Origin: Verrucomicrobiota bacterium
GTDB taxonomy: Bacteria > Auribacterota > JABMQX01 > JAFGEW01
NCBI GenBank assembly: GCA_016931415.1
Contig: JAFGEW010000099.1
Span: 18,522 to 82,521, forward strand
DNA: 64,000 nucleotides
Direction of reading: 5' to 3'
Shown piece by piece: positions 8,858 through 36,806 of this stretch. The translations under genes and the position numbers were made by a program. The notes beneath the pieces were generated by a model that made no database searches, was not told the origin of the DNA, and worked only from the letters and a program-made list of their open reading frames with translations. Within the stretch, counting starts at the first letter, position 1. Every line of letters starts with the position of its first letter.

Positions 8858-8927
8858 GCACGCGGACCGGTCGGAACCGCCTCACGAGGCCGCCACTCTC
8901 TGATAGAGGGTCTGTCCGCCGTGGACG

Positions 8928-9383: not shown

Positions 9384-9621
9384 CCCAGCCGTGCGTGGGC
9401 CAGGATGTCCCTGCACTTGCCCTGCCGTACGGGGATTTCGCTTGACGGCCCGGACGAGGCCGGCGCATAGTGCCGACGAACGAACGTACCGCAGGGACCT
9501 TGCGATGGGGCGCAACGAATACGCGATGACGACGGCGGCGACGTTTCTCGCTTCTATGTATTCGTTCGGCTTTACGGGCCGGAGGCGTCCGGGTCCTTAG
9601 GCGACGAGAGAGCGCGATCTC

Positions 9622-9652
9622 AAGCCCCAGGACCCGGGTTCTGGGGCTTTTT
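9622..9652 (+). terminator. rho-independent terminator
   Basis: Hairpin AGCCCCAG-gacccgggtt-CTGGGGCT followed by TTTTT. Confidence 0.5.
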
Positions 9653-9682
9653 GCTGGCCGGACTCGATGAAGGGACACGATC

Positions 9683-10267
9683 ATGATTGCGGGCGAGAAA
9701 GTGCGCTTGCGAGCGCTGCAGGAAGAGGACGCCGAGGACTGCTGGCGCTGGTTCAACACCTGGGAGATGGTGCGCAACCTCGAGATCCGCTATCCGGTCT
9801 CGCGGCTGGCCGAGCGGGAGTTCATCGCGAACGCAATGAAGCCGCAGGCGGACGACAAGGTGTTCGCGATCGAGGCGCTCGATGGCGGCGCGTATCTCGG
9901 CAACGTCGGGTTGCACCGGATCTCATGGGAGGACCGGCGGGCGACGTTCGGCATCTTCATCGGCGAGAAGGCCTACTGGGGCAAGGGGTACGGCACGGAC
10001 GCGACGCGTGCGATCGTGCGATTCGCGTTCGAGCAGATGAATCTGAACCGGGTCGATCTGCAGGTGCTGGCCGACAACGAGCGCGGGATTCGCTGCTACG
10101 AGAAGGTCGGCTTTGTGCGCGAAGGCGTGCAGCGCCAGCACCGCTACCGCGAGGGGCGCTACGTGGACATGGTCGTCATGTCGATCTTGCGCGAGGAATA
10201 CGAAACACGACGCGATGAGTTCCTGCCGAAGCAGGTCGACACGCCGCGCCACGCCCGGGAGGACTGA
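9683..10267 (+). CDS. GNAT family N-acetyltransferase (RimJ/RimL-like)
   Basis: 194 aa. The acetyl-CoA binding segment reads VGLHRI..FGIFIGEKAYWGKGYGTDA (Q/RxxGxG/A). Confidence 0.75.
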   Translation: MIAGEKVRLRALQEEDAEDCWRWFNTWEMVRNLEIRYPVSRLAEREFIANAMKPQADDKVFAIEALDGGAYLGNVGLHRISWEDRRATFGIFIGEKAYWGKGYGTDATRAIVRFAFEQMNLNRVDLQVLADNERGIRCYEKVGFVREGVQRQHRYREGRYVDMVVMSILREEYETRRDEFLPKQVDTPRHARED

Positions 10268-10270
10268 GCC

Positions 10271-11284
10271 ATGATTATTGTGATGAAGCATGGGGCGACG
10301 CAGGAGCAGCTCGACCACGTCTTCGAGCGCATCACGACGCTAGGCCTGCGCTACCAGGCCATCTACGGCGAGGAGCGCGTCGTCATCGGCGTGATCGGCG
10401 AAGAGGACGTTGTGCGCACGCTGCCGCTCGACGCAATGCCGGGCGTCGAGCGCAGCTTCCCGATCCTCCACGAGTTCCGGCTGGCGGACCGCGAATGGCA
10501 CGAGGCGCCGTCGAAGATCACGATCAACGGCGTGGTCGTGGGCGGGAAGAAGCTCGTCGTCATGGCCGGTCCGTGCACGATCGAGAATGAGGCGATGCTC
10601 GTCAAGACCGCCGAGGCGGTGCGACAGGCGGGGGCGTTGGTGCTGCGTGGCGGGGCGTTCAAGCCCCGGACCTCTCCGTACACGTTCCAGGGTCACGGCG
10701 AGGCGGCACTCGAGTACCTTATCGAGGCCCGCAGTATCACCGGGTTGCCCGTGGTGACCGAGGTGATGGACACCGCCGAGATCGAGCTGGTGGCGCGCTA
10801 CGCCGACGTGCTGCAGATCGGGGCGCGCAACATGGCCAATTTCAGCCTGCTCAAGAAGGTGGGCAAGCTCGACAAGCCGATACTGCTCAAGCGCGGCATG
10901 GCCTCGACGGTGCGCGAGTTGCTCATGTCGGCCGAGTACATCCTGTCCAACGGCAACATGAACGTGATCCTGTGCGAACGCGGCATCCGCACGTTCGAGG
11001 ACGGTACTCGCAACACGCTTGACCTGAGCGCCGTGCCGGCGATCAAACAGATGAGCCACCTGCCCGTGATCGTCGACCCGAGCCACGGCACGGGCCGCAG
11101 CGCGCTCGTCGGACCGATGGCGAAAGCGGCCATCGCCGCCGGTGCCGATGGGTTGATGATCGAGGTCCATCCGAATCCCGAGGAGGCGATCAGCGACGGC
11201 GCGCAGACGCTCAGCTTCGAGCAGTTCGAGCAGTTGATGCGCGAGCTCCGCCCAATCGCCGAAGCTGTCGGCCGGGAGATCTAA
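10271..11284 (+). CDS. aroF: 3-deoxy-7-phosphoheptulonate (DAHP) synthase, class I-beta with N-terminal ferredoxin-like regulatory domain
   Basis: 337 aa. The KDO8P/DAHP synthase I-beta core motifs [21 protein letters not shown] and [11 protein letters not shown] are present. There is an N-terminal extension of about 70 aa, as in Thermotoga-type DAHPS. Confidence 0.8.
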
Positions 11285-23504: not shown

Positions 23505-23920
23505 CGAACGCCCACACCTGATGCTGGAACACAATAGGCGCTGCCCCAACCCATCGACAAGCGGAATATGCCGTCCATCTCCTGCAGTCAGAGCACAGAG
23601 CCTCCTTCTGATGTTGATCTCTGAGGGCAGAGTATTGCGCCCCCCAATGGGCCATTTCCCGACAATAACCACCTGACATGTAGAGAAATGCGCTTGGGGG
23701 CCGGGCAGCCTAGATGAGACTGCGTCGCGTCTAGCGCTCGTTTTGGGGCTATCTGTGGAGATTTCGTGTTGACGCCTGACGCGGATGTGCCATGATAGCT
23801 GTGAAAGAAATCACACAGCCGCCGTTAGAGTTTTCACGCACCTCTAGACGCACAGCAAGATGGCCGCGCACCTGCCGGACGCGGTCGAAGGTGGCTCGGC
23901 AACCTGTTGGGGGGTCTGCC

Positions 23921-24493
23921 ATGTACGCGCCTGCGGTCAACGAAGCTTTCCTTGCCGAAGTGTCCTCACTCCCTGGCGGCGAACGGATTACGCAATGCAT
24001 CCAATGTGGTTCCTGTTCGGGCAGTTGTCCGACGGCGGCCTGGATGGACCATTCGCCACGCCAGATCTTCGCGTTGATCCGGTGCGGGATGCGCGACGAG
24101 GTGCTCAGTTCGAACACGCCGTGGACCTGTGCCTCCTGCTACACGTGCTACGTGCGGTGCCCCAAGGAGATCAAGATCACCGACATCATGTACGCGCTCA
24201 AACGCTTGTCGATCCGGGAGCACAAAGCGAAGCCGGAGACGAAACCCGCCCGCGTGATGGCCGAGGTTTTTGAGGGCTTGGTCAACAAGCACGGGCGCAA
24301 TTCGGAGTTTCATCTGATGCGGCGGCTGTACGGGCGCCCCTCCGCGATCACCAAGGCGCTACGCAATGCCCCGAGCGGCATGAAGCTCAAGCGCCTCGGC
24401 CGGCTGCCGTTCCGGCAGGAGAAGCTGAGCGCCAATGGCCTTATGCAGATGAAGCAGATCACTGACGCCGTCGAGAAGATGGGCGGTCTCTAG
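23921..24493 (+). CDS. hdrC: heterodisulfide reductase subunit C-like (2x[4Fe-4S] ferredoxin)
   Basis: CIQCGSCSGSCP and CASCYTCYVRCP are the HdrC/SdhC-type cluster motifs. About 190 aa. Confidence 0.75.
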   Translation: MYAPAVNEAFLAEVSSLPGGERITQCIQCGSCSGSCPTAAWMDHSPRQIFALIRCGMRDEVLSSNTPWTCASCYTCYVRCPKEIKITDIMYALKRLSIREHKAKPETKPARVMAEVFEGLVNKHGRNSEFHLMRRLYGRPSAITKALRNAPSGMKLKRLGRLPFRQEKLSANGLMQMKQITDAVEKMGGL

Positions 24494-24602
24494 CATCAAG
24501 AGGAATGACAGCACAGGATCAGCGACCCATCTCGGAGGACGGCGGACACCCAGCACGCAGAGCTTGAGACAGAACCCGGTCTTCAGACCGCGGGAGGACG
24601 CC

Positions 24603-25490
24603 ATGGGACTTGCGTACACCTACTACCCCGGATGCTCGGTCGGCGCCACAAGCCGCTGGTACGACATCTCGCTTCGGGCCGTCGCCAAGGCGCTTGACGT
24701 CGAGCTGGCCGAGCTCGAGGACTGGAACTGCTGCGGCGCCACCGCGTACATGAGCGTGCGCGAGCTCATGAGCTTCTGCATCTCGGCGCGCAACCTCGCG
24801 CTGGCCGAGCCGCTCGGCCGCGACATCGTCACCCCCTGCAACGCCTGCTTCACCGTCCTGCACAAGACCAACCGCTACTGGCACGAGGATGAGACCCTTC
24901 GCGGCAAGGTCAACGAGGCGCTCGCTGCTGCGGGCCTCCACTACAAGGGCACGGTCAAGGTGCGTCACGCGCTCGATCCATTCGTCAACGATGTCGGTCT
25001 CGATGCGATCAGTGAGAAGGTCACGAAGCCACTCGCGGGGCTGAAGGTTGCGGCGTACTACGGGTGCCAGCTCGTGCGGCCCGAGACAGGGCTCGACAGC
25101 CCCGACTACCCTGTGATCCTTGACCAGTTGCTCGCCTCGCTTGGGGCCGAGCCAGTGGACTGGGCCATGAAGGCGCGCTGCTGCGGCGCCTCGCTGATCG
25201 TGAGCCGCGAGGACGTCGCACGCGACCTGATCGCCGACATCCTCAAGTGCGCGGCCGACGCCGGGGCCGAGGCGATCACCACGCTCTGTCCGATGTGCCA
25301 CATCAACCTCGAAACGCAGATGGCCCGTATCAACAAGGACTACGGGTTTGATCTCAACTTCCCCGTGCTGTTCTTCACGCAGTTGATGGGAGTCGCGCTT
25401 GGTGTCGACGAGACCGAACTGGGTCTTGACAAGGGCTTCATCGACGCCCGCCCGCTCCTGACGCGCCACGGCATCGGGGCCAGGGCATAA
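24603..25490 (+). CDS. hdrB: heterodisulfide reductase subunit B-like (two CCG cysteine-rich domains)
   Basis: GGGAGG RBS. YYPGCS..NCCG and YYGCQ..RCCG are two CCG domains typical of the HdrB/GlpC/HdrD catalytic subunit. Confidence 0.8.
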   Translation: MGLAYTYYPGCSVGATSRWYDISLRAVAKALDVELAELEDWNCCGATAYMSVRELMSFCISARNLALAEPLGRDIVTPCNACFTVLHKTNRYWHEDETLRGKVNEALAAAGLHYKGTVKVRHALDPFVNDVGLDAISEKVTKPLAGLKVAAYYGCQLVRPETGLDSPDYPVILDQLLASLGAEPVDWAMKARCCGASLIVSREDVARDLIADILKCAADAGAEAITTLCPMCHINLETQMARINKDYGFDLNFPVLFFTQLMGVALGVDETELGLDKGFIDARPLLTRHGIGARA

Positions 25491-25508
25491 CACGGAGGGA
25501 CCCGTGCG

Positions 25509-26396
25509 ATGACTGACAAACCGGCCTGCCGCATCGGATGCTACATCTGCCATTGCGGCACCAACATCGCGCAGATGGTTGACGTCGCGGCCGTCGCGAA
25601 GTTCGCCGAGGGGGAGGCCAACGTCGTCGTGGCCCGGCACTACAAGTACATGTGCTCGGACCCGGGCCAGGAGATGATCGTCAACGACATCAAGGAGCAG
25701 AAGCTCGACCGGATCGTGGTGGCCTCCTGCTCGCCGCGCATGCACGAGCCGACGTTCCAGGGCGCGTGCCAGCGGGCGGGGCTGAACAAGTACCTGTTCG
25801 AGATGGCCAACATCCGCGAGCACTGCGCGTGGGTGCACGAGGAGCGCGCGGTGGCCACGGAGAAGGCCAAGGCGCTCGTGCGCGCGGCGTTGCGGCGGGT
25901 GGCGTTCCACGAGCCGCTCGAGGACCGCGTTGTGCCGATCCATCCGGACGCCGTGGTCATCGGTGGCGGGATCGCGGGGATCACGGCGGCGCTCAACATC
26001 GCCGACGGCGGTTCGAAGGTCTACCTCGTCGAGCGCGACCCGTCGATTGGCGGTCACATGGGCCAGTTCGACAAGACGTTCCCGACGCTCGATTGCTCGG
26101 CGTGCATCCTGACGCCCAAGATGACGTCGGTGGGCCAGCACCCGAACATCGAGTTGCTCACGTGCGCCGAGGTGACGAACGTCGACGGCTACATTGGCGC
26201 CTTCAAGGTCAAGATCAACAAGAAGGCGCGCTACGTTGACGTCGAGAAGTGTACGGGGTGTGGGGTGTGTTGGACCCTGTGCCCGTCGCGGGCCACACCG
26301 CGGCGCAAGACGATCCGGATCAAGACCAAGTTCGGCGACCAGCTCGTAAGGAGTGCGACGAATGGCAACGGAAGCCGCTCTGAAGACGGACATTGA
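25509..26396 (+). CDS. hdrA: HdrA N-terminal fragment: MvhD-like N-domain + FAD (TrxR-like) domain part 1 + first Cys motif of the inserted ferredoxin domain
   Basis: The CYICHCGTNI, YMCSDPGQ and EMANIREH HdrA N-domain blocks are present. The FAD-binding motif is VVIGGGIAGITAA and LDCSACILTPKM follows. CTGCGVCWTLCP is the first cluster motif. The reading frame then ends, 35 nt inside the next gene. Confidence 0.7.
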   Translation: MTDKPACRIGCYICHCGTNIAQMVDVAAVAKFAEGEANVVVARHYKYMCSDPGQEMIVNDIKEQKLDRIVVASCSPRMHEPTFQGACQRAGLNKYLFEMANIREHCAWVHEERAVATEKAKALVRAALRRVAFHEPLEDRVVPIHPDAVVIGGGIAGITAALNIADGGSKVYLVERDPSIGGHMGQFDKTFPTLDCSACILTPKMTSVGQHPNIELLTCAEVTNVDGYIGAFKVKINKKARYVDVEKCTGCGVCWTLCPSRATPRRKTIRIKTKFGDQLVRSATNGNGSRSEDGH

Positions 26397-26844
26397 TCTG
26401 GCGCCGGCCGAGGCGCTCATTGCCGCGTACATGGACAACCGTGAGGCGACCATTGCCTTGCTCCAGGACGTCCAGAAGCACTACGGCTACCTGCCTCGCC
26501 CGGTGCTCGAGCTGATCTCCGAGCGCCTGAACCTGCCGCACACGCAACTCTTCGCGCTCGCGACGTTCTACCGGGCGTTCAGCCTCAAGCCGCGCGGCCG
26601 CCACCTGATCAACGTCTGCACAGGCACGACGTGCCACGTACGCGGCGCCCCGATGTTGCTCGAGGCCATTGAGCGCGAGTGCAAATGCAAGGCCGGCGGG
26701 ACGACGGCCGACGGCCGGTTTACGATCGAGACGGTGAACTGCGTTGGCGCCTGCGCTTTGGCCCCTGTCATCGTCATTGACGAGGAGGCGCACGGCCGCC
26801 TGACCCAGGCCAAGCTCAAGAAGGTGCTCGACCAGTACAAGTAG
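26362..26844 (+). CDS. NuoE/HoxE/HydC-like thioredoxin-fold [2Fe-2S] subunit
   Basis: AAGGAG RBS 8 nt upstream. Cysteine pattern is C-x4-C...C-x3-C (NVCTGTTCHVRG ... VNCVGACALAP), typical of the 24-kDa NuoE family. Confidence 0.8.
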   Translation: MATEAALKTDIDLAPAEALIAAYMDNREATIALLQDVQKHYGYLPRPVLELISERLNLPHTQLFALATFYRAFSLKPRGRHLINVCTGTTCHVRGAPMLLEAIERECKCKAGGTTADGRFTIETVNCVGACALAPVIVIDEEAHGRLTQAKLKKVLDQYK

Positions 26845-26890
26845 CCGACCCGACGTTGGCGAGCGCAGTCGAAGCGAGGGAGAGACCACG

Positions 26891-28909
26891 ATGAAACTCA
26901 AGGGCCTAGCGGACCTCGACGAAGTCAAGCGAGAGGGCCTCCGCCTGCTCTATCCGGACCGGGTCAAGATTATCGTCGGCACGGCCACGTGCGGCATGGC
27001 CGCCGGCGCGGGCAAGGTTGTCGAGACGTTCCGGCGCGTGATCGACGAGCTGAAGCTCGAGGCGATCGTCGAGGAGACCGGGTGCATCGGCATGTGTCAG
27101 AAGGAGCCGATCGTCACCGTCTACCGGCCGGGCCAGACCAAACTTGTCTACCACTCGATGACGCCTAAGAAGGCCGAGGAACTCGCCCGCCAACTCGCCG
27201 AGGGCAACCCGGGCACGCAGAACGCCCTGGGCCAGATCTTCCGCGAGAAGGCGTTGCTCAGCGGCGAGGAGAGAGTGCTGGGCAAGAACGGCGGCAGCGC
27301 ACCCCTGAGCGAGGCGCCCGACCTTGACGAGATCCCCTTCTATCGCAAGCAGCTCAAGATCGCGCTGCGCAACTGCGGCTATATCGATCCGAACGACATC
27401 CGCCACTCCATCGCGCGCGGCGGCTACTACACGCTCTACAAGGTGCTCACCGAGTGGAAGCCCGACGCCGTCGTCGAGGAAATCACCAAGAGCGGCCTGC
27501 GCGGCCGGGGCGGCGGCGGGTTCCCGACGGGGCGCAAGTGGCGCTCGTGCCGCGACGCGAAAGGCCAGCATCACTACATCATCTGCAACGCCGACGAGGG
27601 TGATCCCGGGGCCTTCATGGATCGCAGCCTGCTCGAGGGCGATCCGCACAGCATGCTCGAGGGGATGATCATCGGCGCCTTCGGCATCGGCGGCGACGAA
27701 GGCTACATCTACGTCCGCAACGAGTATCCCCAGGCGATACGCAAACTCACGCGCGCCCTCGAACAGTGCCACGAATACGGCTTGCTCGGCGACAACATCT
27801 TCGGCACCGAGTTCTCGTTTGACATCACGATCAACCGCGGCGGCGGCGCGTTCGTGTGCGGCGAGTCCACCGCGCTCATGGCGTCGCTCGAAGGGCAGGT
27901 CGGCGAGCCGCGCGCCAAGTACATCCACACCGTCGAGCACGGGTTGCGCGACCAGCCGAGCTGCCTCAACAATGTTGAGACGTGGGCCAACGTGCCTGCC
28001 GTCATGGGCAAGGGCGCCGACTGGTTCACCTCGATCGGCACAGGCGGCAGCAAGGGCACGAAAGTGTTCAGCCTCGTCGGCACGATCCGGACCACGGGCC
28101 TGATCGAGGTGCCGATGGGCATCTCAATCCGCGAGGTGCTCGAGGATATCGGCGGCGGTGTGCGCGAGGGCCACCGGTTCAAAGCCGTGCAGACCGGCGG
28201 CCCTTCGGGCGGCACGATCCTCGTCGACGAACGCGGCGCCACCGTCCGCACCGAGCCCGCGACCGGCGCCTACACGGTCGGCATCATGCCGGAGAGCCTG
28301 CTCGACTTGCCGATCGACTTCGACAGCCTCACCGAGGCCGGCTCGATGATGGGCTCTGGCGGCTTGATCGTGATGGACGAGACGAGCTGCATGGTCGACG
28401 TCGCCCGCTACTTCCTCAGGTTTCTTGCCGAGGAGAGTTGCGGCAAGTGCCTCCCGTGCCGCGAAGGTCTGCGCCAGATGGTCAACATCCTCGACCGCAT
28501 CTGTGAGGGCAAGGGCGAGCACGGCGACATCGAGCTGCTTGAGGAACTCGGCAACGTGGTGATGGACACATCGCTCTGCGCGCTCGGCGGCACGGCGGCC
28601 AACCCGCCGCTGTCGACGATCCGGTATTTCCGCGACGAGTACGAGGCGCACATCTACGACAAGAACTGCCCCGCCGGTGTGTGCAAGGCGCTGATCGCCT
28701 ACGGGGTCAACGCCGAGGCGTGCACGGGTTGCGGCCTGTGCCTGAAGGCGTGTCCGACGGACGCCGTGTTCACACGCAAGCCCAAGGCGGGCGAGAGCAC
28801 GCCGAAGCTGCGCGAGGGCCGCGACCTTCACGACATTTCGCAGGACAAGTGCATCAAGTGCGGGGCCTGTTTCGAAGCCTGCACGTTCGACGCCGTGGTC
28901 AAGGAGTAG
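26891..28909 (+). CDS. NuoF/HydB/HndC-like NAD(P)H-binding FMN flavoprotein with N-terminal thioredoxin-like domain and C-terminal 2x[4Fe-4S] ferredoxin
   Basis: 672 aa. The FMN/NADH site is GRGGGGFPTGRKW. ESCGKCLPCREG is the N3-type cluster motif. The C-terminal ferredoxin motifs are CTGCGLCLKACP and CIKCGACFEAC. Confidence 0.8.
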   Translation: MKLKGLADLDEVKREGLRLLYPDRVKIIVGTATCGMAAGAGKVVETFRRVIDELKLEAIVEETGCIGMCQKEPIVTVYRPGQTKLVYHSMTPKKAEELARQLAEGNPGTQNALGQIFREKALLSGEERVLGKNGGSAPLSEAPDLDEIPFYRKQLKIALRNCGYIDPNDIRHSIARGGYYTLYKVLTEWKPDAVVEEITKSGLRGRGGGGFPTGRKWRSCRDAKGQHHYIICNADEGDPGAFMDRSLLEGDPHSMLEGMIIGAFGIGGDEGYIYVRNEYPQAIRKLTRALEQCHEYGLLGDNIFGTEFSFDITINRGGGAFVCGESTALMASLEGQVGEPRAKYIHTVEHGLRDQPSCLNNVETWANVPAVMGKGADWFTSIGTGGSKGTKVFSLVGTIRTTGLIEVPMGISIREVLEDIGGGVREGHRFKAVQTGGPSGGTILVDERGATVRTEPATGAYTVGIMPESLLDLPIDFDSLTEAGSMMGSGGLIVMDETSCMVDVARYFLRFLAEESCGKCLPCREGLRQMVNILDRICEGKGEHGDIELLEELGNVVMDTSLCALGGTAANPPLSTIRYFRDEYEAHIYDKNCPAGVCKALIAYGVNAEACTGCGLCLKACPTDAVFTRKPKAGESTPKLREGRDLHDISQDKCIKCGACFEACTFDAVVKE

Positions 28910-28913
28910 CTCC

Positions 28914-30671
28914 ATGCCTGACGAGACGGTCACATTGACGATCGACGGCAACAAGATCGAGGTCGAGCCGGGCATCTACGTGCTCGAAGCCGCCCAACGG
29001 CTCGGCATCTGGATTCCGACGCTATGCAACTACAAGGGCCTGACACCGTACGGCGCCTGCCGGCTCTGCACGGTCGAGGCGACGAAGGGATCGCGCACTC
29101 GCCTTGTCACCTCGTGCAACTACCCGGTGAGCGACGGCCTTGTCGTGCGCACCGACACCGAGCGTGTGCGCACGGCGCGGCGCATCCTCGTCGAGCTGCT
29201 CTGTGCGCGCCACGGCAAGGTGGGGATCGTCAAAGAGCTTGCCGCCAACGTCGGTGTGACCAAGCCGCGCTTCGGCGAGGGCGACGAGGCGTGTATCCTG
29301 TGCGGCCTGTGCGTCCGCGCGTGTGCCGAAATGGCGCGCGCCTACGCGATCGGGTTCTCGCAGCGCGGTACGGAGAAGATCGTTACCACGCCGTTTGACG
29401 AGCCGAGCGAGGTGTGCATCAACTGCGGTGCCTGCGCCAAGGTCTGCCCGACGGGCGCGATCTATATCGAGGGCGCCGAGGAGATCCGTCACGACGAGCT
29501 CATGCTCGGCCCCGACGCGGCGATCTCGGTGCCGACGATGCAGGCGGTGCCCAACGTGCCCGCGCTCGACGCGACACGCTGCCTTCACTTCCAGCGCGAC
29601 GGGTGCGGCATCTGCGCGCCCAACTGCCCGGCGAACGCGATCGACTACTCGATGCAGGACGAGGAGATCGAGGTTGAGTGCGGCACGATGGTCGTCGCCA
29701 CCGGCTTCCAGACCTTCGACCCCAGTCCGATGGAGCAGTACGGCTACGGCCGCTTCCCGAACGTGATCACGTCGCTCGAGTTCGAGCGGCTCTCGAACGC
29801 GGCGGGCCCGACGGGCGGCGAGATTGTGCTGCGCAACGGCGAGCGGCCGAAGTCGGTTGCCATCCTGCACTGCATCGGCAGCCGCGACGAGCACTACCAC
29901 AAGTACTGCTCGCGGGTGTGCTGCATGTACTCGCTCAAGTTCGCCCACCTCGTGCGCGAGAAGGTCGGCGCTCGGGTCTACGAGCTCTACATCGACATGC
30001 GCAGCTTCGGCAAAGGCTACGAGGAGTTCTACGACCGGCTGCTCCAGGAGGGGGCGCTGTTCATCCGGGGCAAAGGCGCCGAGGTGACCGACTTCGCCAT
30101 GCGGCCCGAGGAGGAAGGCAAGCTCATCGTCAAGTGCGAGGATACGCTCGCCGGCGTGCAGCGCCGCCTCCCGGTCGACATGGTGATCCTGTCGGTGGCG
30201 CTCGAGGCGCGTAGCGACTCGAAGCAGGTCGAGCGCCTCTTCAAGTTGTGCGCGAGCGAGGACGGCTTCTTCCTTGAGCGGCATCCGAAGCTCGCGCCCG
30301 TCGAGACGACGAGCGACGGCGTGTTCCTTGCGGGCTGTTGCCAAAGCCCGAAGGACATCCCGGACACCGTGGCCCAGGGCAGCGCGGCGGCGGCGCAGGC
30401 CTTGAGCCTCATCCTGCGCGGCGAAACCACGTTGAGCGGCGCGCATGCCGAGATCAACCCCGAGCTGTGCAGCGGCTGCCGCATCTGCAACGAGCTGTGC
30501 CCGTACAACGCCATCACGTATGACGCCGAGAAGAAGGTGAGCGAGGTCAATGCGAGCCTGTGCAAGGCGTGCGGGACGTGCGTGGCGGCGTGTCCGAGCG
30601 GGGCGATCAAGGGCAAGCACTTCACGAAGCAGCAGATCCTTGCCGAGCTGGAAGGAGTGTTGGCGAAATGA
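28914..30671 (+). CDS. hdrA: fusion protein: NuoG/HoxU/HydA-N-like Fe-S domain (2Fe-2S + 2x4Fe-4S) fused to HdrA C-terminal part (inserted-ferredoxin second motif, TrxR-like FAD domain part 2, C-terminal 2x[4Fe-4S] ferredoxin)
   Basis: The N-terminal 2Fe-2S pattern is LCNYKGLTPYGACRLC..C, followed by CILCGLCVRAC and CINCGACAKVCP. HdrA-specific blocks follow: CLHFQRDGCGICAPNCP, MVVATGFQTFDP, CSRVCCMYSLK, VFLAGCCQSPKDIPDTVAQGSAAA. The C-terminal motifs are CSGCRICNELCP and CKACGTCVAACP. Confidence 0.75.
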   Translation: MPDETVTLTIDGNKIEVEPGIYVLEAAQRLGIWIPTLCNYKGLTPYGACRLCTVEATKGSRTRLVTSCNYPVSDGLVVRTDTERVRTARRILVELLCARHGKVGIVKELAANVGVTKPRFGEGDEACILCGLCVRACAEMARAYAIGFSQRGTEKIVTTPFDEPSEVCINCGACAKVCPTGAIYIEGAEEIRHDELMLGPDAAISVPTMQAVPNVPALDATRCLHFQRDGCGICAPNCPANAIDYSMQDEEIEVECGTMVVATGFQTFDPSPMEQYGYGRFPNVITSLEFERLSNAAGPTGGEIVLRNGERPKSVAILHCIGSRDEHYHKYCSRVCCMYSLKFAHLVREKVGARVYELYIDMRSFGKGYEEFYDRLLQEGALFIRGKGAEVTDFAMRPEEEGKLIVKCEDTLAGVQRRLPVDMVILSVALEARSDSKQVERLFKLCASEDGFFLERHPKLAPVETTSDGVFLAGCCQSPKDIPDTVAQGSAAAAQALSLILRGETTLSGAHAEINPELCSGCRICNELCPYNAITYDAEKKVSEVNASLCKACGTCVAACPSGAIKGKHFTKQQILAELEGVLAK

Positions 30672-31132
30672 GCAAGTTCGAACCGGTCATCGTCGGCTTT
30701 CTGTGCAACTGGTGCAGCTACACGGGCGCGGACCTTGCCGGCACGGCCCGCCGGCACTACCTGCCCAACCTGCGCATCATCCGCGTCATGTGCAGCGGGC
30801 GCGTCGAGCCGGGTTTTGTCGTCCAGGCGCTGCAGGACGGGGCCGACGGCGTGCTCGTGGCGGGATGCCATCCCGGCGACTGCCACTATATCGAGGGCAA
30901 CTACAAGACGCTGCGCCGCATGACGCTGCTCAAGAAGATGCTCGAGCAGTTCGGCATCGAGCCTGAGCGGGTGCGGCTCGAATGGATCAGCGCGAGCGAG
31001 GCGAACGACTTCGTCCGGGTCGTCAACGAGATGACCGAGGAGATTCGGGCGCTCGGGCCGCTCAAGCTCGGCCACTTCGAGGACGCTGCCGACGCCGAGC
31101 ACGCCGGGAAAGAAGCGGCCACGCCCGCATAG
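30668..31132 (+). CDS. mvhD: methyl-viologen-reducing hydrogenase delta subunit (MvhD/FlpD family)
   Basis: VGFLCNWCSY..MCSGRVEP..AGCHPGDCHY are the MvhD signature motifs. The ATG overlaps the upstream stop (ATGA). Confidence 0.8.
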   Translation: MSKFEPVIVGFLCNWCSYTGADLAGTARRHYLPNLRIIRVMCSGRVEPGFVVQALQDGADGVLVAGCHPGDCHYIEGNYKTLRRMTLLKKMLEQFGIEPERVRLEWISASEANDFVRVVNEMTEEIRALGPLKLGHFEDAADAEHAGKEAATPA

Positions 31133-31156
31133 ACACCGCGATTCGAGGAGAAAGCC

Positions 31157-32152
31157 GTGGGCAAGCCCAAAGTCGCCTTCTACTGGTGCGCCAGTTGCGG
31201 CGGGTGCGAGGAAGCGGTCGTCGATCTGGCCGAGGATATCCTCAAGGTCGTCGATGCCGTTGACATCGTGCTCTGGCCCGTGGCGCTCGACTTCAAGCTC
31301 AAGGACGTCAAGGCGATGAAGGACGGCGAGATTGCCGTAAGCTTCATCAACGGGGCGGTGCGCACCGAGGAGCAGGAGGAGTGGGTCAAGCTGCTGCGCA
31401 GGAAGTCGGGGTTGGTCGTGGCCTTCGGCGCGTGCGCGCACCTAGGCGGCGTGCCCGGGCTGGCGAACTTCTTTGACCGCAAGGCGATCTTCGATCGCGC
31501 CTACGACAAGGTTCCGAGCGCCGACAACCCGAACAAGACCCGGCCGCAGACGAGGACCGAGGTGCCCGAGGGCGTGCTCACGCTGCCCGCCTTCTTCAAC
31601 ACGGTGCGGACGCTCGACCAGGTCATTGACGTGGATTATTACCTGCCCGGCTGCGCGCCGCCGCCGGACCTGATCATGGGAGCCGTCACGGCGATCCTCA
31701 AAGGCGAGCTGCCGCCCAAGGGCACGGTACTCGCTCCGACGAAGGCGCTGTGCGACACCTGTCCGCTCAAGGAATCGAAACCCGAGAAGATGCTCATCCA
31801 CGAGTTCAAACGCGTGGCGACGAGTACGCCGGACCCGACGGTGTGCTATCTCGCGCAAGGCTACGTCTGTCTCGGCCCGGCGACCCGCTCGGGCTGCGGC
31901 GAACGCTGCATCAACGCCAACATGACGTGCCGCGGCTGCTTCGGGCCGACGCCCGAAGCCATTGACCTGGGCGTGAAGGCCCTGTCGGCCATGGCGTCCA
32001 TCCTCGACACGAATGATGCCGACGAGATCACGCGGATCATGGATACCATGCCCGACCCGGCCGGCGTCTTCTACATGTACTGCTTGCCCTCGTCCGTGCT
32101 GCGGCGTCGCAAGGTGGAAGCCATTCCGAGAACGGAGAGCGCTCATGTCTAA
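31157..32152 (+). CDS. mvhG: [NiFe] hydrogenase small subunit, group 3c (MvhG-like)
   Basis: GTG start with a GAGGAG RBS. The N-terminal proximal-cluster cysteines are KVAFYWCASCGGCEE. Multiple distal-cluster cysteines follow (CDTCP, CLGPATRSGCGERCINANMTCRGCFGP). Confidence 0.8.
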   Translation: MGKPKVAFYWCASCGGCEEAVVDLAEDILKVVDAVDIVLWPVALDFKLKDVKAMKDGEIAVSFINGAVRTEEQEEWVKLLRRKSGLVVAFGACAHLGGVPGLANFFDRKAIFDRAYDKVPSADNPNKTRPQTRTEVPEGVLTLPAFFNTVRTLDQVIDVDYYLPGCAPPPDLIMGAVTAILKGELPPKGTVLAPTKALCDTCPLKESKPEKMLIHEFKRVATSTPDPTVCYLAQGYVCLGPATRSGCGERCINANMTCRGCFGPTPEAIDLGVKALSAMASILDTNDADEITRIMDTMPDPAGVFYMYCLPSSVLRRRKVEAIPRTESAHV

Positions 32153-33605
32153 GCAGATCACCATTGACCCGATCACGCGGCTCGAGGGCCACGGCAAGAT
32201 CGAGATATTCCTCGACGATGCAGGCAACGTGGCCAACGCCTACCTGCAGATTCCCGAGCTGCGCGGGTTCGAGCAGTTCGCCGTCGGCCGGCTCGTCGAG
32301 GAGATGCCGCGCATTACCCCGAAGATCTGCGGCGTGTGCCCGACGACGCACCACATGTGTTCGGGCAAGACCGTTGACGCCGTGTATCACGTCGACCCGC
32401 CGGTGCCGGCCAAGAAGATCCGCGAGCTGATCAACTCAGCGTTCATGTTCGAGGACCACACGCTGCACTTCTACTTCCTCGGCGGGCCGGACTTCGTCAT
32501 GGGGCCCGATGCGCCGGCGGCGACGCGCAACATCCTCGGCGTCATCGGTAAGGTGGGGCTCGAGATCGCGGGCCAGGTCATCGCCATCCGTCGCCGCACG
32601 CGCAAGGTGATCAGCGACCTCGGCGGACGCGTCATCCACCCGGTGTGCAACGTGCCGGGCGGTGTCTCGAAGGGGGTCACCAAGGAGCTGCAGGAAGAGT
32701 ACATCCAGACCGCGAAGGACGCCGTCGAGTTCGCCAGGTTCTCGCTCAAGCTCTTCGACGACGTCGTGCTGGCGAACAAGGGTTACGTCGACGTCATCGT
32801 CGGCGACGTCTACAAGCACCAGACCTACTACATGGGCCTGGTGGACAAAAACAACAAGGTCAGCTTCTACGACGGCGACGTGCGGGTCGTGACGCCGACG
32901 GGCGAGCAGTTCGCCAAGTTCAAGCCGAACGAGTATCTCGACCATATCGCCGAGCACGTCGAGCCGTGGAGCTACATCAAGTTCCCGTTCCTCAAGAAGG
33001 TCGGCTGGAAGGGCTTCGTCGACGGCAAGGACAGCGGTGTCTACCGCGTTGCGCCGCTCGCGCGGCTCAACGCGTCCGACGGTATGGCCACGCCCCAGGC
33101 GCAGGAGGCGTACGAGAAGATGTTCTCGGTCCTCGGCGGCAAGCCGGCGCACAACACGCTTGCCTACCACTGGGCGCGCCTCGTCGAGCTGCTCTACGCG
33201 GCCGAGCGTCTCCTCGAGCTGGCGCAAGATCCTGACATTCTCGATCCGAACATCCGCACGGTGCCGACCGAGACACCGTCCGAGGGCGTAGCTGTCGTCG
33301 AGGCGCCGCGTGGCACGCTCTATCACCACTACAAGACCGACGAGCGCGGCGTCGTGCAGGAAGCCAACCTCATCGTCGCGACGGTGAACAACTCGGCGGC
33401 GATCGCCATGTCGGTCGCGCGCGCCGCAAAGGGGCTCATCAAGAACGGCAAGGTCAACGACGGTCTGCTCAACATGGTCGAGATGGCCTTCCGCGCCTAT
33501 GACCCCTGCATGGCGTGCGCCACACACGCTTTGGGCAAGACGCCGCTCATTGTCACGCTGCGCGATCCGAGCGGCGACGCGATCCAAGTGCTGCGCCGCG
33601 ACTGA
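32145..33605 (+). CDS. mvhA: [NiFe] hydrogenase large subunit, group 3c (MvhA-like)
   Basis: RLEGHGKI and RICGVCPTTHH (L1 Ni ligands) are present. The C-terminal motif DPCMACATH is followed by a ~25-aa cleavable tail. The ATG overlaps the mvhG stop by 8 nt. Confidence 0.85.
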   Translation: MSKQITIDPITRLEGHGKIEIFLDDAGNVANAYLQIPELRGFEQFAVGRLVEEMPRITPKICGVCPTTHHMCSGKTVDAVYHVDPPVPAKKIRELINSAFMFEDHTLHFYFLGGPDFVMGPDAPAATRNILGVIGKVGLEIAGQVIAIRRRTRKVISDLGGRVIHPVCNVPGGVSKGVTKELQEEYIQTAKDAVEFARFSLKLFDDVVLANKGYVDVIVGDVYKHQTYYMGLVDKNNKVSFYDGDVRVVTPTGEQFAKFKPNEYLDHIAEHVEPWSYIKFPFLKKVGWKGFVDGKDSGVYRVAPLARLNASDGMATPQAQEAYEKMFSVLGGKPAHNTLAYHWARLVELLYAAERLLELAQDPDILDPNIRTVPTETPSEGVAVVEAPRGTLYHHYKTDERGVVQEANLIVATVNNSAAIAMSVARAAKGLIKNGKVNDGLLNMVEMAFRAYDPCMACATHALGKTPLIVTLRDPSGDAIQVLRRD

Positions 33606-33629: not shown

Positions 33630-33669
33630 CCGCCCTGTGCCCGTCCGAGGGGTGCAGGGCGGCTTTTCC
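33630..33669 (+). terminator. putative intrinsic terminator after the hdr-mvh operon
   Basis: Stem CCGCCCTG ... CAGGGCGG with a structured 17-nt loop, followed by CTTTTCC, a weak T-tract. Confidence 0.45.
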
Positions 33670-33769
33670 TCAAGGGACACCCGTCCGGACGCATTCGCGG
33701 AACTCGCTAAGCATCTTAACTGTTACTGTAAGGAATGCCGGAAGTCCGACTGAGCAGAGGAGCACTCTG

Positions 33770-34354
33770 ATGTGGTCTCGGCTGGTTCGTGTGGGTCTGC
33801 TTGCAGTGGTTGTTCTGGTCACACCTGCCTGCGCCGCCTTGGTTCGGCGGGCGGCGGCATTCTCCCCCTTGCTCGCCCATGGCGAAGGCGGCGAAGACGG
33901 CTTGGTGGAGATGCTCGGCGAGCAGCACGTTGCCGTCATTCATTTCCCGATTGCGCTCACCATTGCAGCCGCGCTGGCGGAGCTGCTCGCCCTCATCACG
34001 CGGCGGCCTGCGTTCACGCACGCGGCTCGCTTCTGCATCGTGATCGCGGCGCTCGGCGCCATCGCCGCCGTCATCACCGGCTGGATCGCGTTCGGGGAGG
34101 AAACCGAAGGCATGACGGCAGCAGCTATGAAGTCGAATCCCCTGACCCGGAATCTTCTGATCCATCGTTCGCTCGGTATTGCGGCGGCCATCGTGATCGT
34201 GGCAGGGGCCGTTCTGTCCGAGGTTGGCCACATCGGCCGGAACAAGTGGGTGATGCTGGCATCCCGGATCGCCTTGCTCGCGGCCGTTGTCCTCGTAGTT
34301 CTTACAGGCTACTACGGTGGGAAATATGTGTTCCCCGAAATGCCACCGGCTTAG
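33770..34354 (+). CDS. hypothetical polytopic membrane protein (4-5 TM) at the head of the copper-efflux cluster
   Basis: 194 aa with a hydrophobic profile and conserved His residues. No recognisable motif. Confidence 0.5.
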   Translation: MWSRLVRVGLLAVVVLVTPACAALVRRAAAFSPLLAHGEGGEDGLVEMLGEQHVAVIHFPIALTIAAALAELLALITRRPAFTHAARFCIVIAALGAIAAVITGWIAFGEETEGMTAAAMKSNPLTRNLLIHRSLGIAAAIVIVAGAVLSEVGHIGRNKWVMLASRIALLAAVVLVVLTGYYGGKYVFPEMPPA

Positions 34355-35762
34355 CAGACGTGCCACGACCGTGCTTCGTGCTGTTGTGCTCGCCTTGATC
34401 GCGGTTGGCGGATCGTCGTGCGCAGGCCGGCGGGAGACGCTGTCTGACGGAAGGCCGGTGCCCGCGAACGGCCCGATGCCGGCGTCGCCGATATCGGCGC
34501 CGGCCATGTTGCCCGACGAGCCGACGATTGATGACTACATCGCCTACGCGGAGCAGAACAACCCAGCGATACGTGCCGCGCGGGAGCGGTGGCATGCGGC
34601 GCTGGAACGCGTCCGGCAGGCGCGCTCGCTGCCTGACCCGAGGCTGAGTTTCGGCGAGTTCGTCGAGTCGGTCGAGACGCGCGTCGGGCCGCAGGAGTGG
34701 AACGCGACGTTGTCGCAAACCTTCCCCTGGTTTGGCACGCTCGGGCTGCGCGGCGACGCTGCCCGCTCTGGCGCCGCGATGGCCGCACAACAGGTCGAGG
34801 CGCTGCGCCTCAAGATCATCTACCAACTCAAACACGACTACTACGAGTACTACTACCTCGCCCGTGCCGTCGGCGTGAGCGAGGAGAACGTGCAGCTTGT
34901 CGCCGATCTCGAGGAGGTCGCCCGCACCGCCTACGCTGCGGGCCGGGTGCCGCAAGCGGCGGTGATCAAGGCCCAGGTCGAGCTCGAGAAGCTCCGCGAC
35001 CGCCTCCGCACACTTAGCGAGCAACGCATTCCCGTCGCAGCCAAGATCAACGCTCTCCTCGGGCGGGAAGCCGATGCGCCGCTGCCGTGGCCGCAGGTAT
35101 TGCCCGACGATGACGAAATCCTGCCGGCCGCTGAACTCCTCAACCAGCTCCGTACAGCGAACCCCGAACTCCGTGCCCTGGCCCATGCGGCGAACAGGGC
35201 GAGCCGCGCCGAGGCACTCGCGCGCAAGGCGCGCTACCCCGACCTGACGCTCGGCGTCACCTACGTCTCGACCGGTGACGCCGTCATGCCCAACGTCGCC
35301 GGCAGCGGCAAGGACCCCGTCATGGTCATGTTGTCGGTCAACCTGCCCGTCTGGGGCGGCAGGAACCGCGCCGTCATCCGCGAGGCCCGGGCGCAGCTCG
35401 AGTCGGCCATCGCCGAACGCGGCGACCGCGAGAACATGCTGGTCGCCGAGCTCGAGATGGCGCTGTTCAAGTACAACGACGCGGTGCGCAAGATCACCCT
35501 GTACCGCGACACGCTGGTTCCCCAGGCCAAGCAGAGCCTCAACGTGACCCAGCAGGCTTTCACGGCCGGCACGGTGGCCTTCCTTGACCTGATCGACGCC
35601 CAACGCACGCTGCTCGAGATCCAGCTCATGGCCGAACGGGCGCTCGTGGACCGCGCTCAGCAGCGCGCCGCACTCGATATGCTGACCGGGCGCGGGCTGT
35701 CGAATGGCGCGGGAAACACTGCGGTCGGGAATCAACTTGGTGCTGATGGTGTTGAGAAATGA
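34317..35762 (+). CDS. cusC: outer-membrane efflux factor (TolC/CusC/CzcC family), lipoprotein
   Basis: The signal peptide plus lipobox reads LIAVGGSSC. Two repeats of the OEP domain with coiled-coil alpha-helical content are present. It sits upstream of the cusBA-like genes. Confidence 0.75.
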   Translation: MGNMCSPKCHRLSRRATTVLRAVVLALIAVGGSSCAGRRETLSDGRPVPANGPMPASPISAPAMLPDEPTIDDYIAYAEQNNPAIRAARERWHAALERVRQARSLPDPRLSFGEFVESVETRVGPQEWNATLSQTFPWFGTLGLRGDAARSGAAMAAQQVEALRLKIIYQLKHDYYEYYYLARAVGVSEENVQLVADLEEVARTAYAAGRVPQAAVIKAQVELEKLRDRLRTLSEQRIPVAAKINALLGREADAPLPWPQVLPDDDEILPAAELLNQLRTANPELRALAHAANRASRAEALARKARYPDLTLGVTYVSTGDAVMPNVAGSGKDPVMVMLSVNLPVWGGRNRAVIREARAQLESAIAERGDRENMLVAELEMALFKYNDAVRKITLYRDTLVPQAKQSLNVTQQAFTAGTVAFLDLIDAQRTLLEIQLMAERALVDRAQQRAALDMLTGRGLSNGAGNTAVGNQLGADGVEK

Positions 35763-35818
35763 ATGGACTCATCGTGAATGTACACACGCGATCAGCACCC
35801 AGGCCGAGGAGAGTGCTC

Positions 35819-36625
35819 ATGAAGACCATGTTCGCCGCGCTTGTCGCCGCGGCCCTTATAGGCATTGTCGTGACGCCTGCGTTCCCCGAAGGCGAGGCCG
35901 AGGTCAGAGGGCAGACAATCTGCCCAGTCATGGGCGGCGTCGTCGACAAGCAGTACTTCGCCGACCACAACGGGAAGCGTGTCTACTTCTGCTGCCCGGC
36001 GTGCGCGCCCGAGTTCGCCAAAGATCCGGAGAAGTACATCAAGAAGCTCGAAGACGAAGGCATCACGCTCGATCAGACGCCGGACGATGGCCAGGGCGCC
36101 GATGAGGCGGCAGGCCACACCGGGCAAGTCTGGATATGTTCCATGCACGCGCAGGTCGAGCAGCCAGAGGCGGGCAATTGCCCCATGTGTGGCATGGACT
36201 TGGTCTTGCGCGAGGCCGAGGGAACGACCGAGACTGTCACGACGCAGACAGCCTGCCCCAATTCGGGCAAGCCGATTAACAAGAACCACTTCGCCGACTA
36301 CAACGGGAAGCGCGTCTACTTCTGCGGTCCCGGCTGCGTCAAGGCCTTCAAGGCCGATCCCGAGCCGTACATGAAGAGGCTCGCCGACGCCGGCGTCGTA
36401 CTCGAAGATGCGCCCAGGGAAGTGAAAACGCAGACGATGTGCCCCGTGCTGACGAACCAGAAGATCAACAAGAGCATCTTCGCTGACCACGAGGGCAAGC
36501 GCGTCTACTTCTGCTGCCGCAGTTGCCAGCGCGCGTTCGGGAAGAACCCAGCCAAGTACGTGAAGCAGCTCGAGGACCAGGGCATCACGCTCGAGCGTGT
36601 GTCCCAGACCTCCCACTCGCACTGA
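35819..36625 (+). CDS. periplasmic metal-binding protein with three YHS/TRASH-like domains and one CusB-type heavy-metal-binding (HMBD, C-x-M-H...C-P-x-C-G-M) domain
   Basis: Signal peptide present. The unit (I/M)CPV..G..(V/I)(D/N)K..FADHNGKRVYFC(C/G)..C...F..(D/N)P..Y(I/M)K(K/R)L occurs three times. VWICSMHAQVEQPEAGNCPMCGMDLV, the HMBD, sits in the middle. Confidence 0.65.
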   Translation: MKTMFAALVAAALIGIVVTPAFPEGEAEVRGQTICPVMGGVVDKQYFADHNGKRVYFCCPACAPEFAKDPEKYIKKLEDEGITLDQTPDDGQGADEAAGHTGQVWICSMHAQVEQPEAGNCPMCGMDLVLREAEGTTETVTTQTACPNSGKPINKNHFADYNGKRVYFCGPGCVKAFKADPEPYMKRLADAGVVLEDAPREVKTQTMCPVLTNQKINKSIFADHEGKRVYFCCRSCQRAFGKNPAKYVKQLEDQGITLERVSQTSHSH

Positions 36626-36806
36626 CAGCACCCGGGCTGCGGGTGACCTCGCGCCTGCGGCGCGGATGTGGGAGGAGGAGGGCCTGAGTGACGATTGTGA
36701 GGCGACGCGACGGGCCCGGACAGACAGCGCGGGTGATGGCGCCGGCGGAGACGCCCCGCTACGGTGTGCTAGCCTCCTGTCCGAGTGGCGCCGAGGTGGT
36801 GACGAG

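Follow-up and report, generated by a model that had tools for sequence, protein, structure and literature searches.

How is a gene for HdrA, the flavin-binding subunit of heterodisulfide reductases, to be explained when it ends at less than half of its usual length? The question is posed by a 64-kb stretch of contig JAFGEW010000099.1 from a Verrucomicrobiota bacterium, called the window here, in which an open reading frame (ORF) on the + strand (25509-26396) encodes only 295 residues of a protein that is usually ~650 residues long. The original prediction, made from the letters of the window, noted that the missing parts reappear further downstream, and offered two readings: an evolutionary split of HdrA with nuoEF-like genes inserted in the break, or a frameshift, assembly error or pseudogene. 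The evidence assembled below argues with good confidence for a genuine fission of HdrA, conserved in many uncultured bacteria, where a block of genes of the Bfu type occupies a loop of the inserted ferredoxin domain and the two halves would reassemble in trans as part of one complex. Of the four known electron-bifurcating families, two are the HdrA-type and the Bfu-type enzymes, both central to anaerobic energy conservation.

All of the motifs first reported for the short ORF can be found in it. From its ATG start, the product (HdrA-N) carries CHCGTNI, YMCSDPGQ and EMANIREH, the flavin-binding GGGIAG (residues 152-157, nt 25962-25979), and one CxxCxxCxxxCP motif, CTGCGVCWTLCP (C248-P259, nt 26250-26285), which is the first Cys motif of the inserted ferredoxin domain. 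As had been noted, the Cys of this motif (C248-C258) are the last, and no other occurs after C258 up to the stop at 26396. The ORF corresponds to about the first 262 residues of HdrA and comprises the N-terminal cluster domain, the GxGxxG part of the thioredoxin-reductase-like flavin adenine dinucleotide (FAD) domain, the first four inserted-ferredoxin Cys and a 36-aa tail. Residues 8-260 align with methanogen HdrA at 13-266 of 8RVU (E 4e-102) and 5-258 of 5ODC (E 4e-100), and the match to 8RVU_a stops at the CP of the first CxxCxxCxxxCP motif.

The remainder does lie in the ORF at 28914-30671, as proposed, with a match to residues 242-653 of methanogen HdrA (E 5e-108). The HdrA C-half (29499-30671, +) makes up residues ~196-585 of the 585-aa product and carries the second inserted-ferredoxin Cys motif, CLHFQRDGCGICAPNCP (C223/231/234/238, nt 29580-29627), MVVATGF, CSRVCCMY and the C-terminal 2x[4Fe-4S] ferredoxin domain. 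It also supplies what remains of the FAD domain; within it, E291 and K342 are the aligned counterparts of E356 and K409 in Methanothermobacter wolfeii HdrA (5ODC_A), residues that have been named as key for bifurcation (PMC12054007). The E-values exclude a chance resemblance of the halves to HdrA. Genuine HdrA homology in the 585-aa ORF restarts at HDELMLGPDAAISVPTMQAVP, and the C-half equates to about 270-653 of 8RVU. An apparent 25-residue overlap of the two halves on HdrA arises because the second 4Fe-4S motif of the preceding BfuA-like part aligns to the first HdrA motif. That BfuA motif, CINCGACAKVCP, was considered as a substitute for the HdrA motif, with which phmmer aligns it, and was rejected: conservation of the N-half motif is 100%, and without both of its motifs BfuA could not form the 2x[4Fe-4S] domain of 9MQX_A and 8A6T_A.

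Mapping of an unsplit bacterial HdrA (L052, 656 aa) to the window gave the same picture, with residues 1-269 falling at 25530-26336, residues 239-653 at 29409-30662, and no HdrA-like sequence in any frame between 26336 and 29409. The NCBIfam HdrA2 profile (777 positions) is spread over three window proteins (positions 1-257 on the N-half, 240-641 on the fusion and 647-774 on the MvhD-like protein), and at 384 and 437 bits the NCBIfam HdrA models score below every HdrA cut-off (1100-1400). Aligned to full-length HdrA, the check that had been suggested for the two fragments, the halves tile it with no gap and no true overlap, and the break is placed 2-10 residues past the first Cys motif. Instead of a single ~650-aa, five-domain polypeptide, the window has a 295-aa protein and part of a 585-aa fusion, encoded 3.07 kb apart, and the two proteins together hold the GxGxxG and E356/K409 equivalents, all eight inserted-ferredoxin Cys (HA5/HA6) and all eight Cys of the C-terminal ferredoxin. 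The flavin site is divided over two chains, with GxGxxG in the N-half and E291/K342 plus the CCMY segment in the fusion, both strictly conserved. Judged from this division, neither half should be able to bind flavin by itself.

An error of sequencing or assembly, or an hdrA pseudogene left by a frameshift or truncation, would account for an ORF that ends at 295 aa where HdrA usually reaches ~650, and for nothing else. It had been suggested that a single-base indel near 26340-26400 might restore a continuous HdrA; no indel there can rejoin the gene, because the next 3.07 kb are intact and conserved NuoE-like, NuoF-like and BfuA-like coding sequence. Moreover, the same break recurs in independent assemblies from NCBI, ENA, JGI and Logan that span many phyla, the nearest relatives of the N-half (88-91% identity) are also short, at 291 aa, and every ligand is conserved. 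A truly decaying copy looks different: in L043 (9126-11760), HdrA-N is followed directly by a BfuA::HdrA-C gene, the BfuA part of that gene is interrupted by in-frame stops or changes of frame, and neither NuoE nor NuoF is present. Either decay or assembly errors could explain that sequence, which contrasts with the intact genes of the window. The artefact or pseudogene reading is refuted. At another locus, a Fidelibacterota chromosome (L034), an apparent truncation of BfuA::HdrA-C is a data artefact from a masked N run at ~9900-10000.

At the end of HdrA-N, a perfect Shine-Dalgarno sequence (AAGGAG, 26348-26353) stands 8 nt before the ATG at 26362 of the nuoE-like gene, which starts in another frame and overlaps HdrA-N by 35 nt (26362-26396, +), as originally read; the overlap suggests translational coupling. 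A programmed +1 frameshift within the overlap, yielding an HdrA-N::NuoE product like the fusions known from other loci, was considered and set aside: the canonical Shine-Dalgarno-8 nt-ATG arrangement is present, though no search aimed at a slippery site or stimulatory structure was made.

The interruption had been described as an insertion of nuoEF-like genes. NuoE- and NuoF-like genes do occur between the halves, but the block has a third, BfuA-like part, and its affinities are with Bfu rather than Nuo. By homology, two of the three parts are BfuC and BfuB, and the third is a BfuA-like domain that continues in frame into the HdrA C-half. BfuC (BfuC/HydC/NuoE-like; 26362-26844, +) is a thioredoxin-like protein that retains the C1 [2Fe-2S] site and matches Pfam 2Fe-2S_thioredx (E 1e-49) and NCBIfam NuoE/HoxE. 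BfuB (BfuB/HydB/NuoF-like; 26891-28909, +; 672 aa) has an N-terminal thioredoxin-like domain, a core predicted to bind flavin mononucleotide (FMN) and NAD(H), and a C-terminal 2x[4Fe-4S] domain. The FMN/NAD(H) domain and cluster B1 are recognizable from Complex1_51K (E 3e-42), NADH_4Fe-4S (E 1e-33) and C517/520/523/563, and B3/B4 from two Fer4 matches at residues 606-668 with C611-621 and C654-664. The best PDB matches of BfuB are all bifurcating Bfu/HydB chains: NiFe-HydB 7T2R_B (E 4e-194), then 9BOV_B, 7Q4V_B, 8A6T_B, 9MQX_B and 9N5U_B. The five ligands of cluster B2 are likewise complete, with C438, C476, H525, C531 and C536 of the Acetomicrobium mobile protein corresponding to C500, C538, H587, C593 and C598 in the window. 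The B2 His is described as nearly universal in BfuB and absent in non-bifurcating homologues (Schut et al. 2022, PMC9304861).

The BfuA-like part (BfuA/HoxU/NuoG-N-like; 28914-29483, +; residues 1-190 of the fusion) matches Pfam Fer2_4 (E 1e-18) and Fer4_7 and carries a [2Fe-2S] site at C38/49/52/68 together with two [4Fe-4S] motifs at C127-137 and C168-178; among these are the BfuA clusters A1 and A2. In the PDB it is most similar to 9MQX_A, a short BfuA/NuoG-like chain (residues 5-188, E 8e-37), and it also matches HydA1 8A6T_A and 7T2R_A; HoxU is similar. The HxxxCxxCxxxxxC motif of a His-ligated cluster (A3) was not found in this part. A linker of only ~10 residues joins the BfuA ferredoxin-like domain to the first HdrA-derived segment. 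On these sequence features, the inserted block is of the bifurcating Bfu/HydABC type and not of the respiratory Nuo type.

Some variation in the block deserves mention. In the window, the stretch at BfuB residues ~444-465 (28220-28285), ILVDERGATVRTEPATGAYTVG, adds ~22 residues that no solved HydB/BfuB chain has, and divides the PDB alignments in two. The BfuB N-terminal domain (residues 1-105, 26891-27200) is only 39% identical to that of the closest locus, L007 (6058-6717), versus 77% for the remainder of the protein, a difference that looks like a domain swap. At L028 (6817-9987), a 1056-aa BfuB has its C-terminal ferredoxin domain replaced or followed by a GltD-like NAD(P)H domain and lies directly upstream of BfuA::HdrA-C; the pattern of high-scoring segment pairs is similar in L020, L023, L026 and L029. 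Such a domain may add an NADP(H) site to BfuB.

At other loci, a ~4-kb block separates HdrA-N from NuoE (L005, 10861-14596; also L015-L018, L020-L022, L035 and L066), which encodes HATPase_c proteins, a HydS-like sensory [FeFe]-hydrogenase domain (Fe_hyd_lg_C), and DRTGG and PHP domains. This is a regulatory set typical of HydABC operons, and its presence hints at a HydABC-type locus as the source of the inserted Bfu block.

Whether orthologous loci share the same split was the other check proposed, and here too the result is clear. A genome scan with one genome per species returned 80 loci, which were mapped by tblastn; 39 of them, from about 15 bacterial phyla and, among archaea, from Thermoplasmata and others, carry BfuA::HdrA-C with the same split boundaries. 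The hosts include Verrucomicrobiota, Zixibacteria, Ignavibacteria, Armatimonadota, Calditrichota, Aminicenantes, Acidobacteriota, Planctomycetota, Anaerolineae, Chloroflexia, Dehalococcoidia, Desulfobacterales, Myxococcales and a Eubacteriales metagenome-assembled genome (MAG), and the nearest locus is that of a Verrucomicrobiota MAG (L007, 85-93% identity). Together with the tiling on full-length HdrA, these shared boundaries across many phyla bear out the reading of a genuine evolutionary split.

At the protein level, each HdrA half is represented by more than 100 clusters. Among the best 120 homologues of the N-half (61-91% identity), 118 are shorter than 450 aa and most are 250-300 aa, while the best 120 homologues of the fusion all measure 568-603 aa, cover 98-100% of it and carry Fer2_4. 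C248/251/254/258 of HdrA-N are 100% conserved in ~110 short homologues; equally invariant in the best 120 fusion homologues are C223/231/234/238, C519-529, C550-560, E291 and K342 of the HdrA part and all 12 Cys of the BfuA part. The N-halves all end 16-62 residues past the Cys motif, in a tail with a semi-conserved P..R.I..G pattern. A split pair from Dehalococcoidia (L004) has fragments ~80% identical to residues 1-268 and 236-649 of unsplit 649-aa HdrA proteins (L045, L040), and at such identity must adopt the same fold.

The two halves also keep company. HdrA-N is present at 27 of the 29 BfuA::HdrA-C loci with at least 6 kb of upstream sequence, and among the 27 loci with at least 3.5 kb downstream, MvhD follows in 22 and both hydrogenase subunits in 15. 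Automated counts of NuoE/NuoF co-occurrence were left aside: they are too low, as the distance cut-offs passed over loci in which a GltD-like domain is joined to BfuB. Three long contigs share the gene order, and two of them have HdrA-N/NuoE overlaps, of 23 nt (L001) and 20 nt (L004). At several loci (L024, L026, L029, L053 and P0051/63/64/70/95), HdrA-N and NuoE even form single ORFs of 416-445 aa, and these natural fusions provide a Rosetta-stone link between the Hdr and Bfu parts.

In the window, the ORF list and a Pfam scan place the split gene in an unbroken series of nine + strand ORFs (23792-33605), which is best read as one operon in the order HdrCB / HdrA-N / BfuCB / BfuA::HdrA-C / MvhDGA. 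The series opens with an HdrC-like 2x[4Fe-4S] protein (23792-24493, +; Pfam Fer4_8/Fer4_17; NCBIfam CoB_CoM_SS_C, E 2e-24), whose homologues align from residue ~44 onward only and whose start is probably the internal ATG at 23921 (MYAPAVNEAF...) rather than the listed one at 23792. A weak sigma-70-like match at 23769-23796 overlaps that listed ATG. Next comes an HdrB-like protein (24564-25490, +) with two CCG domains (Pfam CCG x2, E 7.5e-28) and thus the predicted disulfide-reducing site; its match to methanogen HdrB 8RVV_B is full-length (E 2e-57), with the CC and CxxC motifs aligned. Downstream of the fusion gene, and overlapping its stop by 4 nt, lies the gene for an MvhD-like [2Fe-2S] protein (30668-31132, +; Pfam FlpD, E 6e-57; NCBIfam VhuD).

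The operon ends with the two subunits of a [NiFe] hydrogenase. The small subunit (31157-32152, +; 331 aa; NCBIfam VhuG) is of the three-cluster Mvh/Vhu type, closer to 5ODC_E (E 3e-61) than to the HydS-type 7T2R_E (E 3e-18). The large subunit (32145-33605, +; NCBIfam VhuA, E 1e-127) is about equally near to A. mobile HydL, 7T2R_D (E 2e-119), and MvhA, 5ODC_F (E 6e-113). Its L1/L2 CxxC motifs (CGVCPTTH and DPCMACATH), the three-cluster small subunit and the MvhD partner are those of group 3c (Mvh/Vhu); NCBIfam VhuA, VhuG and VhuD are the top matches for these proteins, yet score under the equivalog cut-offs. A one-cluster small subunit docking on a His-ligated A3, as in NiFe-HydABCSL, was not found. 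A terminator-like hairpin of 13 bp (10 G-C) with a T-rich tail (33630-33672, +) closes the operon, and no comparable site occurs inside the gene cluster.

The flanks are unrelated to the cluster: upstream, on the opposite strand, is a histidine kinase gene, and downstream are DUF2231 and a Cus-like heavy-metal efflux operon (34317-43020) that encodes an outer-membrane factor, a YHS/HMBD metal-binding protein, a HlyD-type adaptor with HMBD domains and a 1396-aa resistance-nodulation-division pump. Long antisense ORFs run over the hdr genes, for example a 644-aa ORF at 24519-26453 (-), and have no coding support. ORFs of this kind on the opposite strand are a common by-product of high G+C content.

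Beyond the gene structure, homology, tiling, conservation, ligand retention and natural fusions described above, we infer an assembly, an electron path, its direction and its substrates. The Bfu block (BfuC, BfuB and the BfuA domain) would have entered the inserted ferredoxin domain, in the loop that joins its two Cys motifs, and the 295-aa and 585-aa products would reassemble in trans into one HdrA fold. The HdrA halves, HdrBC, MvhD, the Mvh-type [NiFe] hydrogenase and BfuBC would then make up a single cytoplasmic complex, as strongly implied by the stop/start overlaps, the one terminator that ends the operon, the fusion of BfuA to the HdrA C-half, and the HdrA-N::NuoE fusions elsewhere. A point that the original prediction did not make is that the insertion sits in the low-potential electron-output domain of HdrA. 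Work on Mvh-Hdr has shown that electrons from H2 enter via MvhG and MvhD, that FAD bifurcates them, and that the high-potential electron travels via HA4 to HdrB while the low-potential electron exits via HA5/HA6 of the ferredoxin-like domain to ferredoxin or polyferredoxin (PMC13580544, PMC12054007). In the proposed complex, the composite HA5/HA6 domain, tethered to BfuA by the ~10-residue linker, would deliver low-potential electrons by way of the BfuA clusters to the FMN/FeS core of BfuBC, which exchanges electrons with NAD(H) and ferredoxin (PMC9304861).

If this assembly is right, the likeliest direction, at about even odds, is H2 -> MvhAG -> MvhD -> HdrA-FAD. The high-potential electron would go to a disulfide at HdrB and thereby drive H2 oxidation, and the low-potential electron to BfuA and BfuBC, reducing NAD+ and ferredoxin. 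There would thus be two bifurcation sites in series, with 4 H2 + 2 RSSR (a disulfide) + NAD+ + 2 Fd(ox) (oxidised ferredoxin) as the formal inputs. Since the organism is bacterial, CoM-S-S-CoB is unlikely to be the substrate.

It is conceivable, though on balance unlikely, that the same complex works the other way, with Bfu oxidising NADH and reduced ferredoxin (confurcation) and feeding HdrA via its inserted ferredoxin domain. It would then be an NADH/ferredoxin-dependent disulfide reductase, for which the hydrogenase is an optional extra donor or an H2 vent. Bfu enzymes are reversible, and the Bam-Bfu enzyme is proposed to have BfuABC donate to its HdrA module (PMC9304861); FlxABCD-HdrABC, cited in PMC12054007, is a precedent for an NADH-linked Hdr. 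Relatives point the same way: with both hydrogenase genes missing at 12 of the 27 loci with enough downstream sequence, and MvhD missing as well at L004, the conserved core is Hdr plus Bfu, and this flow is therefore plausible for the family as a whole. However, Bfu is attached at the low-potential output of HdrA and not at the input arm formed by MvhD and the C-terminal ferredoxin (PMC13580544), and the window has a complete Mvh-type hydrogenase and an MvhD, both co-operonic and translationally coupled. Sequence alone does not distinguish the two directions.

Far less probable is a pair of independent, adjacent enzymes, in which NuoE, NuoF, the fusion and MvhDGA form a NiFe-HydABCSL-like NAD/ferredoxin hydrogenase, the HdrA-derived part of the fusion is just an FeS scaffold, and HdrCB with HdrA-N is separate or vestigial. 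The best PDB matches of BfuB and the large subunit are indeed A. mobile NiFe-HydABCSL subunits, and a few loci have the fusion gene with no HdrA-N nearby (L025, and L034 with its masked sequence). Two separate enzymes would nonetheless leave a flavin site divided between HdrA-N (GxGxxG) and the fusion (E291, K342) with both parts 100% conserved, and would have to be squared with the 27 of 29 loci where HdrA-N co-occurs and with the HdrA-N::NuoE fusions. Furthermore, NiFe-Bfu receives electrons through the His-ligated A3 cluster (PMC9304861), whereas BfuA in the window has no such cluster and the small subunit is of the three-cluster Mvh type.

Several observations weigh against the single-complex, H2-driven account that is preferred here. 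The N-terminal domain of the window BfuB has three Cys (C34, C65, C69) rather than the canonical four for the B5 [2Fe-2S] cluster, which is given as conserved in all Bfu enzymes (PMC9304861); the window and L001 have an HndB-like GTATCG...GCIGMC region with three Cys, and L007, L004 and others have the canonical four (CxxxxC...CxxxC). The 12 loci without hydrogenase, which include L004 and those of sulfate reducers, mean that the conserved core need not use H2. In addition, split, unsplit and GltD-inserted forms of HdrA interleave in a neighbour-joining tree and a best-hit table of the C-halves. Lastly, neither the literature searched nor the NCBIfam models yielded an account of an HdrA split by a Bfu insertion; an earlier one may exist, and a claim of novelty is to that extent not secure.

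The hydrogenase-less loci have their own surroundings. L004 (= L003; 15133-20238) lacks MvhD and hydrogenase, and continues with a second BfuA/NuoE/NuoF set, DUF5981 and a methylene-tetrahydrofolate reductase gene, which suggests that this split locus is tied to the Wood-Ljungdahl pathway rather than to H2. At sulfate-reducer-type loci (L026, L027, L029, L032, L043), two divergent HdrA-like genes and another HdrCB pair take the place of the hydrogenase downstream of MvhD.

How the split arose can be addressed through the C-half tree, which is crude, unbootstrapped and midpoint-rooted. A single origin of the split form was considered and not retained on this tree, which, with its interleaving, indicates only that the form is not simply monophyletic. 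Split L004 is nearest to unsplit Dehalococcoidales genes, the split L043 C-half is 87% identical to the GltD-type L083, and on an archaeal contig (L053) the split copy shares 66% identity with an unsplit one across the trimmed C-half and 62% across a longer alignment. Such interleaving could result from insertion on several occasions, from transfer of a cassette through recombination in the HdrA flanks, or from gene conversion between paralogues.

A broader proposal, which we advance only tentatively, holds three things jointly: a natural, hard-wired tandem of two unrelated bifurcation chemistries, from the bifurcating FAD of HdrA to the FMN/FeS core of Bfu, a recurrent socket in the loop, and recurrent fission at one site. 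The inserted-ferredoxin loop would be a modular socket that is empty, filled by a GltD domain or filled by a whole Bfu operon, with these states swapped between close HdrA backbones (L004 vs L045, ~80%; L043 vs L083, 87%). The flavin-binding domain would have been repeatedly split at one site, and the split kept by obligate reassembly in trans. Were this to hold, bacteria living at a low H2 partial pressure could reduce NAD+ and ferredoxin at the cost of a disulfide.

The consequences of the single complex alone would also be considerable. It would be the second candidate, after Bam-Bfu, for serial bifurcations, and genetically a clearer one; it would add a new type to the bacterial group 3c hydrogenases; and it would present a Rossmann-type FAD domain and a 2x[4Fe-4S] domain that are each built from two polypeptides. 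Many of the host phyla (Zixibacteria, Ignavibacteria, Aminicenantes, Anaerolineae, Planctomycetes/Verrucomicrobia and sulfate reducers) dominate sediments and aquifers. In automatic annotation the halves appear as "HdrA family protein", "4Fe-4S dicluster domain-containing protein" or "hypothetical protein", and metabolic reconstructions from MAGs consequently miss the NAD(H) link or drop the short gene as a fragment.

Among known systems, the closest counterpart on the Hdr side is MvhAGD-HdrABC, the H2:CoM-S-S-CoB/ferredoxin oxidoreductase of methanogens (5ODC, 8RVU), all six subunits of which have homologues in the one window operon. The HdrA ligands and E356/K409 equivalents, the HdrB CCG motifs, MvhD and the three-cluster MvhG-type small subunit are all kept. 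Unlike the methanogen enzyme, however, the window HdrA consists of two polypeptides broken in the inserted ferredoxin domain, with a BfuCBA block in the break, and the host is bacterial. On the Bfu side, NiFe-HydABCSL/NiFe-Bfu of A. mobile (7T2R) and the wider Bfu family share the FMN site, B1, B2 with its His and B3/B4; the N-terminal part of the window BfuA, with its [2Fe-2S] and two [4Fe-4S] clusters, resembles Type 2 BfuA, and 7T2R_D is the best PDB match of the large subunit. In the window, however, BfuA is fused to the HdrA C-half instead of to an H-cluster-less HydA body, the small subunit is Mvh-type and not a one-cluster HydS, MvhD and HdrBC are present, and the B5 motif has three Cys. 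No Hdr-split type appears in the Bfu classification of PMC9304861, in the part of it available. Judged from its genes, the locus is a cross between MvhAGD-HdrABC and a BfuABC module resembling Type 2.

The only described combination of an HdrA-type protein with BfuABC and an MvhD-like protein is Bam-Bfu, the benzoyl-CoA reductase BamBCDEFGHI of class II, which is itself proposed to run two bifurcations in series (PMC9304861). Its HdrA-like and BfuA-like proteins are separate and unsplit, unlike those of the window, and its catalytic partner is a tungsten enzyme and not a hydrogenase plus HdrB. FlxABCD-HdrABC, the NADH dehydrogenase/heterodisulfide reductase of Desulfovibrio, offers another parallel. 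Flx is not of the NuoF/Bfu type, and the HdrA of that complex is not known to be split. What it has in common with the window is the pairing of Hdr with an NAD(H) module in bacteria (cited in PMC12054007). Type III HdrA has a GltD/NfnB-like domain inserted in the inserted ferredoxin domain (PMC12054007), so that the same HdrA domain hosts an NAD(P)H-handling module. Six of the related loci have such genes (L059, L069, L072, L076, L078 at 7772-11107, and L083), each a single gene of ~1110 aa with a ~460-aa GltD/NfnB-like flavoprotein domain between the two inserted-ferredoxin Cys motifs. Type III HdrA differs from the window in being one polypeptide, with an insert of one domain rather than three genes, placed ~20 residues further downstream in the loop. 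Set beside these systems, the split Hdr-Bfu arrangement is apparently a widespread, unnamed variant of known bifurcating machinery.

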